Shown one piece after another: positions 28,982 to 37,032 of a stretch of DNA of 64,000 nt (its first letter is position 1; every line of letters begins with the position of its first letter). This stretch comes from Thermoproteota archaeon (GTDB lineage: Archaea > Thermoproteota > Thermoprotei_A > Sulfolobales > Ignisphaeraceae). Under the pieces are notes generated by a model that saw nothing but the letters and a program-made list of their open reading frames with translations, was not told the origin of the DNA and did not search any database. The stretch is taken from the NCBI GenBank assembly GCA_030550585.1, contig JAUQPB010000002.1, forward strand, positions 96,001-160,000, read 5' to 3'. A program made the translations under genes and the position numbers.

Positions 28982-31900
28982 ATGGGACTTTCAAGCAAAA
29001 GAATAGCATCGGTGATTATGTCAATATTAATGCTCTTAATAGCAATGTTATCGATGACCATGTTAATTATCGAACAGAGATCTAATGTTTTAGCGCAATC
29101 ATCTGTTGAGTACTTTGTTGAAAATGGGGAGGTGTATATGAAGCTGCCAGACGGTACCACCAAAGCAATATATTTAACAGGTGTTAACTGGTTTGGCTTT
29201 GAGACAACAAATTATGTTGTTCACGGTCTTTGGGCTAGGAATTGGGTGGATATGCTAAATCAGATGAAGAGCCTAGGCTTCAACGCTATAAGATTACCCT
29301 TCTGCCCGCCCTCTGTAACACCAGGTACAACACCTTCATCCATAGACTATAACAAGAACCCAGATCTGCAGGGGCTCGACTCAGTGTCTATTATGGAGAA
29401 AATCATACAAAAAGCTGGTGAATTAGGGATCTTCATAATTCTTGACTTCCACAGGATTGGCTGTAACGATATAGAGCCACTATGGTATACAAGCTCGTTT
29501 ACAGAGCAAGACTATATAAATGTCTGGAAATCAGTGGCTCAAAGATTTGGTAAATACCCAAATGTGGTGGGGGCTGACCTCAAAAACGAGCCTCATTGCC
29601 CTATTGGAATGTCTAGACAAGACTGCTATACAAGTGGCCAGGGAGCAACATGGGGTGTAGGTAACCAGAAAACTGACTGGAATCTAGCCGCAGAGAGAAT
29701 AGGTAATGCTGTCCTTAGCGTTGCTCCTCACTGGCTAATAATCGTTGAAGGTACTCAATACACAAATCCCAAGTCTGACAACGTATCCTTGTATCCAGAT
29801 GCTGTTTACTGGGGCGAAAACCTAAGGGCAGTAAAAGACTACCCTGTAAACTTGCCTAGCAACAAACTACTCTACTCGGCACATGAATACGGACCTGACG
29901 TATATGTACAGCCATATTACAACGACCCGAATATATATCCAAATAATTTAAATCTAATATGGGAGCAAAATTGGGGTTATGTTAGAACAAAGCTGGGACT
30001 ACCAGTATTCTTAGGCGAGTTTGGAGGAAAATATGGACATGGGGGAGATTCACGAGATGTTACATTCCAGCAGAAACTCGTAGATTACCTCATAAACACA
30101 GGAATATGCTGGTGGACATACTGGAGCTGGAACCCCAACAGCGGAGACACAGGCGGAATACTGCAAGATGACTGGATCACAATATGGCAAGACAAATACA
30201 ATAACCTCAAGAGGTCGATTGATTACTGCAAATCCAAATACGGGGAAGTGTGGGCGCCAAGTGCAACTACATCTCCAACTACAGTTACAGCAACTATAAT
30301 CACCACTACGACTGCTACGACGACCACATCTCCAAGAACAACCACTACAACTTCTCCGACAACCACTACACAGGTGACAACAACTGCTACTACGCTTAGG
30401 ACAACTACTACTACTGTAGTTACAACTACGGCTTATACGAGTTATGTTACTGTGTTGTCTGGTGTTGTTAGTGTTCCTGTTACTGCTTCTGCTGTTTTCA
30501 CTATTACCTCTCCTGTTACCACTACTGTAACTGCTGTTACAACGACTACTGTTCCTGTGACGATTGTTGCTACAGTTACATTAACAGTTCCGGTAACAAC
30601 AACTGTTACACCAACAACTACAACTACTACCACTACCACTAGTACAACAACCACAACTACACAAGTAACAACAACTACTACAACTACTTCGGCTGCTGGT
30701 CTTGTTTCTGCTCCTTCGACGAAGGTTGTTGTTGTTGCTTCTAGGCCTGGTGGTTTGTCTGGTGTTTTGCAGTTCAAGGTTTTGAGTGGTGGTACTATAT
30801 CTACCTCCTCTGGGAGTATATCAATTCCGAGTGGTGCTACTGTTTCAATTGATTTTGCTAGTAGTAGTGGTTCTCTTTGGATTGGTGCAGATGGTTGGAT
30901 GTCTGCATCTGGTATAAGCGTTAAAGCCATATATGTTAATGGTAATCAGGTTGCTGGCTCAACAACTATAACGGGTGTTACAAATGTTAGAGTAGATCTA
31001 TCGTCTATAATGACGTCTCTGACGCTAACAATATCTGGTAGTGGTTGGACACAGATAACATATGGTGGACAAACACTTGTTTCTGGCTCGAACAGCCAGA
31101 CAATTGTCATTCCAAACATTGGTGCAACATCTAGCCAACCACTAAACCTGAACATGGGAAGCAACAGCATATACCTAGAAGCAACATCTAGCCAACCACA
31201 AATAGGAGCTACAACAACCACAACAACTACCACTACTATGACCACTCCAACGACTACTCCTACAACTATAATCACTACTACATCTCCGACAACCACTACT
31301 ACGACTACTACTACGCCTAGAACGACGACTACTACAACCACATCTCCAACAACTACAACTACTCCTACAACTGTATCTCCAACGACAACAACCACAACTA
31401 CACAAGTAACAACAACTGTAGCATCAGCAACCATCATTACTGCTATTCCTGGTGTTAACGATGTTACTGTTGTTGGAGATGCGAATAATATATGGCCTTG
31501 TGGTTTGATAGGTAATGAATTCTATGCTTGTGTTAATTTATGGGGTCTTAGTAATTATCAGGGTCGGTTTAGTGGTCAAGTGGTTATGGTTCACAGGGCT
31601 GGAGGTCCGCTGATAGTTAATAACAGCCTTGTGTTAACAAACATAAATCTAAATCCATGGGATGTGATAGCGTATCACGAGGTTGTATATGGGGCATCTC
31701 CATGGGAGTCTCAGACACCTTATAGTAAGGGTGTTAGCGCGCTACTTATGCCTAGAAAGGTGAGCGAGTTTCCGAGAGTTATAGCATATTTAGACTACTC
31801 ATTCGACAAGTTTAACACAGCTGTGAACTTCGCGTTTGATTTGTGGCTCAAGAGAAATCCATCTACAGCTGGTGTTCAGCAAGGAGATATAGAGCTTATG

Positions 31901-32323
31901 ATATGGACTTTCAGCGGCAACGGTGCTGCACCAGGAGGATACCAGGTAGGGTCAGTAACAATACCGGTTCTTATCAATGGCCAGCTAGTCAATATGCGGT
32001 GGAATGTGTACTTCGGCTATCCATGGGGCAGTGGCTGGGTGTACATAGCCTTCTTCCCATCACAGCCTCTACAGAGGGGATCGATAGCTCTAGACATAAG
32101 AGCGTTTATAGAGAAGGCTGCAGAGATAATAAACCAGCAAAGAGCTGATCTAGGAATCAACCCATCGACAATAGGAAACTTCTACGTGATGACAATAGAG
32201 TTCGGCTCTGAAGTCTTCTACACACAGAATGTTGATGTTGATTGGGCTATCTTCAGATACTATCTAGCATTATATCCAATATCAGTGGACACAGTATCAG
32301 CATTAACATCGCTTCCAAAATAA
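28982..32323 (+). CDS. secreted multidomain endoglucanase: signal peptide, GH5, Thr-rich linker, unknown beta module, Thr-rich linker, GH12
   Basis: GH5 motifs GVNWFGFET, HGLW, DLKNEPH, GEFGG, WSWNPNSGDTGG; GH12 motifs FAFDLW, ELMIW, IEFGSE. Confidence 0.9.
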   Translation: MGLSSKRIASVIMSILMLLIAMLSMTMLIIEQRSNVLAQSSVEYFVENGEVYMKLPDGTTKAIYLTGVNWFGFETTNYVVHGLWARNWVDMLNQMKSLGFNAIRLPFCPPSVTPGTTPSSIDYNKNPDLQGLDSVSIMEKIIQKAGELGIFIILDFHRIGCNDIEPLWYTSSFTEQDYINVWKSVAQRFGKYPNVVGADLKNEPHCPIGMSRQDCYTSGQGATWGVGNQKTDWNLAAERIGNAVLSVAPHWLIIVEGTQYTNPKSDNVSLYPDAVYWGENLRAVKDYPVNLPSNKLLYSAHEYGPDVYVQPYYNDPNIYPNNLNLIWEQNWGYVRTKLGLPVFLGEFGGKYGHGGDSRDVTFQQKLVDYLINTGICWWTYWSWNPNSGDTGGILQDDWITIWQDKYNNLKRSIDYCKSKYGEVWAPSATTSPTTVTATIITTTTATTTTSPRTTTTTSPTTTTQVTTTATTLRTTTTTVVTTTAYTSYVTVLSGVVSVPVTASAVFTITSPVTTTVTAVTTTTVPVTIVATVTLTVPVTTTVTPTTTTTTTTTSTTTTTTQVTTTTTTTSAAGLVSAPSTKVVVVASRPGGLSGVLQFKVLSGGTISTSSGSISIPSGATVSIDFASSSGSLWIGADGWMSASGISVKAIYVNGNQVAGSTTITGVTNVRVDLSSIMTSLTLTISGSGWTQITYGGQTLVSGSNSQTIVIPNIGATSSQPLNLNMGSNSIYLEATSSQPQIGATTTTTTTTTMTTPTTTPTTIITTTSPTTTTTTTTTPRTTTTTTTSPTTTTTPTTVSPTTTTTTTQVTTTVASATIITAIPGVNDVTVVGDANNIWPCGLIGNEFYACVNLWGLSNYQGRFSGQVVMVHRAGGPLIVNNSLVLTNINLNPWDVIAYHEVVYGASPWESQTPYSKGVSALLMPRKVSEFPRVIAYLDYSFDKFNTAVNFAFDLWLKRNPSTAGVQQGDIELMIWTFSGNGAAPGGYQVGSVTIPVLINGQLVNMRWNVYFGYPWGSGWVYIAFFPSQPLQRGSIALDIRAFIEKAAEIINQQRADLGINPSTIGNFYVMTIEFGSEVFYTQNVDVDWAIFRYYLALYPISVDTVSALTSLPK
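30259..30690 (+). repeat. Thr/Val-rich low-complexity linker 1
   Basis: runs of ACN codons, including a Val-Thr alternating stretch. Confidence 0.85.
31209..31430 (+). repeat. Thr/Pro-rich low-complexity linker 2
   Basis: runs of ACN codons; shares a 33-bp exact repeat with linker 1. Confidence 0.85.
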
Positions 32324-36727: not shown

Positions 36728-36813
36728 TCCCGCCGGGGGGACTTGAACCCCCGACCACCCGGTATCCGCCCGCCTCACTACAGCCGGGCGCTCTGCCGCT
36801 GAGCTACGGCGGG
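36728..36813 (-). tRNA. tRNA-Tyr(GUA) with 14-nt intron at 37/38 (36764-36777)
   Basis: reverse complement CCCGCCGTAGCTCAG...CCCGGCTGTAG[TGAGGCGGGCGGAT]ACCGGG...GGTTCAAGTCC...GGCGGGA; CCA not encoded. Confidence 0.95.
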
Positions 36814-36917
36814 TTTTGCCAATCAAGTTCTATATATTTTTAGCTTTATAAGGTTTTATTCTCATTATTCAGTATACTAAAATATAATAAAATAGTCAGC
36901 AAGTTTTTGGTGTTGAT

Positions 36918-36975
36918 AAGATGATGAGGGAGGTGATCTTATTTGATTGATGATAGAAGATCAACCGACTGAATA
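36918..36975 (+). ncRNA. box C/D sRNA; guides complementary to the 16S rRNA 3' and 5' ends
   Basis: ATGATGA-GGGAGGTGATCTTAT-TTGA-TTGATGA-TAGAAGATCAACCGA-CTGA. Confidence 0.75.
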
Positions 36976-36977
36976 GG

Positions 36978-37032
36978 TTTTCAGCCCATGAAAGTTGCAT
37001 CATCTTTCAGAATCTGCCGGAATCATCATGGC
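36978..37032 (-). ncRNA. box C/D sRNA (Sulfolobus sR1-like D guide)
   Basis: reverse complement ATGATGA-TTCCGGCAGATT-CTGA-aag-ATGATGC-AACTTTCATGGG-CTGA. Confidence 0.85.

Follow-up and report, generated by a model that had tools for sequence, protein, structure and literature searches.

In the window, the whole 64,000-nucleotide stretch of DNA analysed here, the element at positions 36921–36972 of the forward strand is, judged from its sequence, a real archaeal box C/D RNA gene, measuring 52 nt from box C to box D. The gene is intergenic; the tRNA gene on one side of it is divergent and the protein gene on the other is convergent. The preliminary description had claimed C and D boxes, and both are there, box C (RUGAUGA, reading ATGATGA) at 36921–36927 and box D (CUGA, CTGA in the DNA) at 36969–36972, together with both guide words. 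Between the terminal boxes and on the same strand lie the 12-nt D′ guide (36928–36939), a degenerate box D′ (TATT, 36940–36943), box C′ (ATGATAG, 36950–36956), which was placed by comparison with homologs, and the 12-nt D guide (36957–36968). The terminal boxes, the guide lengths, the length of the RNA and the Watson–Crick duplex at position N+5 are all those of an archaeal C/D guide, and the genes for Nop5 and fibrillarin are present in the host genome. A TATA-like A/T box at 36882–36887 (plus strand), a motif match 39 nt before box C, is a possible but weak candidate for the gene's own promoter; a similar box stands at −39 in the homologous locus L075, and its placement is inconsistent across the family. 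Here and below, L and G numbers denote loci and genomes, and f and g labels are codes for families and genera.

At gathering thresholds, Rfam recovered two tRNAs only in the whole window. The C/D RNA reached no Rfam cut-off (sR14, sR49, sR1, snoPyro_CD), the best score being 17.4 bits for sR49 against a cut-off of 50, and the sub-threshold hits are generic C/D matches. A tRNA gene at 36728–36813 (minus strand) was called Thr(agt) by ARAGORN; we read it as tRNA-Tyr(GUA), which is 72 nt long when mature, after removal of a 14-nt intron from the anticodon loop.

A second gene for a box C/D sRNA, not annotated so far, is predicted on the minus strand at 36981–37029, convergent with the first and 8 nt from it. 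Its guides are predicted for 16S U15 (nt 14–21) and U52 (nt 49–58), sites that Pyrobaculum is predicted to target with two different sRNAs, Pca sR19 and sR18 (PMC4644070 supplement). In 15 of the 21 homologous loci it was detected no more than 300 nt downstream, and its best Rfam score, 23.3 bits for snoPyro_CD, lies below the 45-bit cut-off. Taken together, the first and second RNA cover both strands of helix 1. Three further C/D candidates on the minus strand of the window, at G000:C7:134123 and 135053 (about window 38123 and 39053) and at C7:154881 (about window 58881), have predicted double targets in 23S or 16S. A genome-wide C/D scan yielded 63 candidates; 23 of them had two matches that reached at least 8 bp, and in 10 of these the matches lay within 100 nt. 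Since the scan mis-parsed the D box of the first RNA and 8-bp matches are common in shuffles, these counts give no rate of long-range guides. Elsewhere in the window, the forward strand at 28982–32323 holds an ORF of 1113 aa with long Thr-rich linkers, by eye presumably a secreted multi-domain glycoside hydrolase (cellulase-like).

The targets were tested on the host's own 16S, a single gene at G000:C7:16349–17857 (G000 being the host genome), and on its rRNA operon. The first guide was expected to match the 16S 3′ end with the anti-Shine-Dalgarno (anti-SD) sequence and the second the 5′ end at helix 1, and the genome's own 16S bears out both. The D′ guide (36928–36939) pairs with local 16S positions 1498–1509, the anti-SD and its 5′ flank, over 12 bp (10 Watson–Crick and two terminal G-U), and the D guide (36957–36968) pairs with nt 5–13, the 5′ strand and loop of helix 1, over 9 bp, all Watson–Crick. 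Both sites are the top matches for their guides across the whole rRNA operon. Shuffled guides matched as long anywhere in 16S and 23S in 40 of 1500 trials for the first guide and 23 of 1500 for the second, so the pairing of one copy taken alone is suggestive; it is the conservation described below that decides the matter. In the D′ guide the N+5 base is G36935, opposite local C1502, which corresponds to E. coli C1533 by numbering derived from the fragments listed in PMC5389701 (available in part); in the D guide it is A36964, opposite U8, about U13 in the E. coli alignment of the PMC4644070 supplement.

Several other pairings were considered and set aside. The two guides had also been noted to pair with each other; the sequence does contain this complementarity, but its full 7 bp recur in just two of the 21 homologs and the pairing is broken in four, and with +0.1 kcal/mol at 85 °C we rejected the duplex as a functional stem. 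The guide–guide pairing arises because the two 16S target sites are themselves mutually complementary over 6 bp. Among tRNAs the best match was 7 bp (tRNA-Ala), which is chance level; several of the ARAGORN calls with long introns used in this check were spurious. An 8-bp site in the 16S–23S spacer was likewise at chance level. About 113–135 nt past the 16S 3′ end (G000:C7), the spacer has a hairpin in which 8 nt match the D guide, and a TGATGA resembling box C comes immediately after it. Box C/D-like motifs are known in archaeal rRNA spacers.

Regarding conservation, the first homologs came from a BLAST-type search of 41 relatives with no motif fixed. A pattern search with both guide cores and CTGA then detected the pair in 21 of 26 family genomes and five of six genera, while the reversed control gave 0 of 26, so that homologs do keep both complementarities. 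The pattern fixes the guide cores and box D, and the column conservation of those cores is therefore partly by construction; box C was absent from the pattern, and RTGATGA is found in 21/21. Box C to box D measures 49–62 nt in the homologs, and the loop between the inner boxes varies from 3 to 16 nt while box C stays constant. Guide changes in L081 and L018 still pair with the target through G-U. Relaxed searches recovered neither guide from the five family genomes without a match to the pair, of which three are 70–81 % complete and two 93 % and 98 %; the two near-complete ones, G016 (93 %) and G006 (98 %), belong to the same genus as the host.

The same homologs bear on the idea that there is no RNA gene here, GGAGG being the SD of a 9-codon TTG ORF at 36943 and the boxes a product of chance. 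Such an ORF exists in this species. It recurs in three of the 21 homologs, whereas nine have no start codon 3–13 nt downstream and the remaining ones have frames of 1–58 codons, mostly opening at an ATG or GTG of box C′. What is conserved are the boxes, the spacers and the second guide, with the loop length left free, and we therefore give this idea hardly any credence. The small ORF had been named in advance as a possible refutation of the RNA, and since it is not conserved the RNA reading stands.

The register of box D′ was determined by covariation. With C′ fixed, D′ position 1 and C′ position 6 form a Watson–Crick pair at a spacer of 12 nt in 19 of the 21 homologs, in three pair types (C-G in 12, T-A in four, A-T in three); other spacers gave 3–14 of 21 and one or two pair types. 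Many members of f3, and lineages further removed, have a canonical CTGA D′ in this register. This 12-nt register leads to C1533 (local C1502) and U8 as the predicted methyl sites. GA at D′ positions 3–4, which bears on the ability of D′ and C′ to form a K-loop, occurs in 12/21 homologs and is missing in this species, where the box reads TATT. A TTGA three bases on (36943–36946) was rejected as the family D′, since the resulting 15-nt register fits 5/21 homologs against 19/21 at 12 nt; it may serve in this species, and N+5 would then fall on G1530, where the duplex ends.

Taken together, we consider it probable that the RNA is a dual 2′-O-methylation guide for 16S U8 and C1533, acting on pre-16S whose ends are already adjacent. 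We infer transcription, RNP assembly and the two methylations from the N+5 rule, from Cm1533 of Ignicoccus hospitalis and from the in vitro activity of Pyrococcus furiosus sR26. L7Ae, Nop5 and fibrillarin would load on the RNA, and U8 and C1533, the latter beside the anti-SD tail, would be 2′-O-methylated. This would take place on pre-16S, probably before helix 1 and the tail are locked. The processing stem or circularisation at a bulge-helix-bulge (BHB) would bring the sites to within 88 nt, and the RNA would then be a double guide of the ordinary 'closely linked' type, with a linkage that crosses the junction; if the ends were held at all, this would be a transient by-product of methylation. 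Several observations count against a dual methylation guide, namely the degenerate D′ in this species, a mismatch two bases from N+5 in four of the 21 homologs, the failure to find Um8 on record for any archaeon in the literature covered, and two features described below, the bulge in many f3 D guides and the persistence of the pair across three families. PMC7005279, PMC11698992 and PMC3996153 hold no data on the U8 or C1533 sites in their accessible parts. As D′ lacks GA here, the C1533 half is less sure for this species than for the family, and we lean only somewhat towards its being active in the host.

The distribution of the two guides was followed beyond the family. Among 161 genomes of the order, 35 yielded an anti-SD guide preceded by a C-type box, with 10/12 in f1, 21/24 in f3, 1/1 in f4 and 2/4 in f9, and in none of the remaining 119 order genomes; f2, f6, f7, f8, f10 and f13 gave 0/111. 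In other orders about a dozen loci carry it, with unrelated D guides. Within f3, a D′ anti-SD guide is present in 44 of 52 genomes searched, and by eye 19 of these have a 5′-end-type D guide and 25 something else. The linked pair also occurs in f4 (1/1), and its pattern was found class-wide in 17 of 201 genomes, all from f1, f3 and f4, two of which look like chance. In many f3 D guides (e.g. L200, L202) a bulged G is inserted and the distal GGAT on its far side is retained, suggesting that the pairing itself is kept, beyond methylation alone. Three f3 5′-end D guides have drifted to G-U pairs, with N+5 still opposite U8. One f3 genome, G486, also contains six dispersed, near-identical repeats of 46–47 nt that start with an SD-like word and are not C/D-like.

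The U8 guide before a D box was matched in 69 of 161 order genomes, with many control matches; this search and the phylum search (42/401) include matches that arose by chance, and we relied on them only once the loci had been read. Fifty outside U8-guide loci were read: the partner guide points to 16S about 523–533 in 13, to about 27–39 in eight and to one of those two regions in nine, while 20 have other guides or no C/D frame. None of the 50 has an anti-SD partner. Family f9 and genus g173 keep both guides on separate sRNAs. In g173 (L124–L127) a short sRNA has the U8 guide as its D′ guide, beside a different D guide, and the anti-SD guide belongs to another sRNA. The U8 guide and the 523–533 guide of f9/f10 form another long-range pair (L108, L110, L111, L113–L118, L132–L134, L137), the latter region being one which we take to adjoin the central pseudoknot. 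The guide pair is thus an old feature of one clade, outside which each of the two guides occurs without its counterpart.

As a further step we modelled the precursor. The 16S flanks are predicted to form a long stem with a BHB, whose cleavage and ligation would yield a circle of 1582 nt that includes 39 nt from the leader and 34 nt from the trailer. C1502 and U8 are 1494 nt apart in mature 16S; on the predicted circle C1502 lies 88 nt before U8, and the earlier idea of a circular precursor that joins the ends thereby gains a number. This distance falls inside the 100-nt window by which linked targets are defined (available text of PMC4644070 and PMC6009581), and circular pre-16S has been described (PMC8339473, seen in excerpt). 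In the definition of Dennis 2015, a long-range chaperone-type double guide has its targets separated by over 100 nt of sequence and near each other in the structure. The proximity makes an end-holding role plausible.

One may accordingly ask whether the linkage itself is selected. An RNP on both ends of a stem-closed or circular pre-16S could be an assembly chaperone or checkpoint that covers the anti-SD and prevents the 5′ strand of helix 1/2 from closing, its ordered release after methylation timing the pseudoknot and end maturation. Three families retain the linked pair, a persistence that exceeds the lifetime of most guides (PMC6009581) and fits a function for linkage. The 88-nt spacing on the predicted circle and the coverage of helix 1, with the D guide on its 5′ strand and the convergent neighbour on its 3′ strand, point in the same direction, as does the release of D after D′ in sR26; a similar checkpoint has been proposed for Neq sR13 (both from partly available sources). 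The distribution speaks against it. In 25 of the 44 f3 genomes, and in distant lineages, the anti-SD guide is combined with unrelated partners, all 50 outside U8 loci combine the U8 guide with partners other than an anti-SD guide, g173 and f9 have the two on different sRNAs, no anti-SD guide was found in six families (0/111), and searches of G006 and G016 found neither guide.

A misfold between the 16S ends was also considered as a reason for the linkage. Pairing of 10–14 with 1498–1502, which the RNA could block, reached a probability of 0.57–0.78 in a truncated-ends model, but fell to 0.05–0.07 in the full pre-16S model; in linear mature 16S it was 0.94–0.96 at 37 °C and 0.31–0.39 at 80 °C. 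As the value depends on the model, the misfold was not counted as support. A 1990 paper reportedly described an alternative 5′/3′ pairing of small-subunit rRNA. On balance we regard selection for the linkage as unlikely, and we are rather doubtful of its most specific form, in which the sRNP would read pre-16S as a circle, grip both mature termini across the processing stem until they are methylated and so time end maturation, a checkpoint reminiscent of U3 and built of ordinary guides. If it were true, it would offer a handle on the step that opens circular pre-16S, and if linkage matters in any form, modification would be shown to happen on a circular or stem-closed precursor.

The D′ guide is in addition a perfect extended SD, whose duplex amounts to −20.7 kcal/mol at 37 °C, and the RNA might be thought to mimic an SD and occupy the anti-SD of mature 30S, damping the translation of leadered mRNAs. 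At 85 °C the same duplex reaches only −5.8 kcal/mol, the guide sits in a methylation slot at fixed register in many lineages, and we saw no sign of free-RNA behaviour. Regulation of this kind is in our view extremely improbable.

The RNA was also compared with the eukaryotic U3 snoRNA. U3 is a non-methylating RNA, much longer, which uses its 5′ domain and pairs with the 5′ ETS. A true analogue would be a non-methylating C/D RNA for pre-16S cleavage and pseudoknot control. There is a likeness in the paired region, helix 1 and the central pseudoknot, where the D guide pairs with 16S 5–13; the helix 1/2 region is also under U3 control (PMC8339473, in part), and the degenerate D′ of this species would suit an RNA that does not methylate. 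In contrast to U3, the antisense stretches of this 52-nt RNA stand directly before D′ and D in canonical guide slots with Watson–Crick N+5 pairs, the RNA lacks an antisense 5′ domain beyond its boxes, and the best matches are in mature 16S, with none in the ETS. The RNA is moreover patchy across the order, and methylation by the same guides is on record elsewhere. Two reviews (PMC8339473, PMC3608112) state that no U3-like RNA is known from archaea, and we consider a U3 analogue very improbable. The preliminary description had favoured a U3-like RNA or a special mask of the anti-SD. We did not retain either, in view of the ordinary methylation geometry (12-nt spacers, Watson–Crick N+5), of the precedent for the anti-SD guide as a methylation guide (Pf sR26, and Cm1533 measured elsewhere, from sources available in part), and of other lineages in which each guide has an unrelated partner or the two lie on different sRNAs.

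Each guide by itself has been described from other archaea. The D guide of Pf sR26 shares 11 of 12 nt and the N+5 base with the D′ guide described here; it methylates its substrate in vitro, with D release ordered after, and dependent on, D′ (PMC4836650 and PMC7089733, partial texts). It differs in having the anti-SD guide in the D slot, next to a partner guide that bears no relation to the 16S 5′ end. In I. hospitalis, Cm1533 was measured by RiboMeth-seq and its guide given as an unknown sRNA (PMC5389701, partial text). The sR305 of that species has the D′ guide as here in the same 12-nt register, and its sR155 carries the U8 D guide, so that the two guides are on separate sRNAs, unlike here; both IHOsR305 and IHOsR155 were entered without target prediction (PMC4644070 supplement). 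D′ and C′ of IHOsR305, as well as those of L024 and L171, are paired as in the host family, and IHOsR305 is likely the missing guide for I. hospitalis Cm1533. For the U8 guide, Rfam sR14 (RF01145) has a consensus D′ guide that resembles it and scores 25.2 bits on L137 (E 2.3e-5), which is below the 38-bit cut-off, and the slot and the partner are different. The guide words had no match in a Pyrobaculum supplement, whose tables may not give the sequences as text. The pairing of the two guides on one RNA was not found in print, nor any description of one guide RNA on both 16S termini, in the mostly open-access literature searched. The present annotation therefore adds an unlisted, old sRNA family with two predicted 16S methyl sites, and points out the likely guide type (Iho sR305) for a measured methylation.

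Other archaeal RNAs come close in part. The Nanoarchaeum equitans sR13 and sR20 are also C/D guides on the anti-SD region, with Am1534 and Gm1530 measured, and an RNA-based maturation checkpoint was proposed for them; they differ from the RNA described here in methylating other bases and in their partners, A1408 and 23S C1920, which are not at the 5′ end (all from the available part of PMC5389701). Double guides on distant sites, Neq sR15 and sR17 and Pca sR53 and sR56, have been proposed as folding chaperones (PMC4644070 Table 3 and PMC6009581, in part), an idea summarised in PMC7994747 (partial text), and none of the long-range guides in the accessible part of that Table 3 links the 5′ and 3′ termini. 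As linked and split versions of the present pair both occur in nature, they provide a test case for the long-standing, unproven idea that double guides act as folding chaperones.
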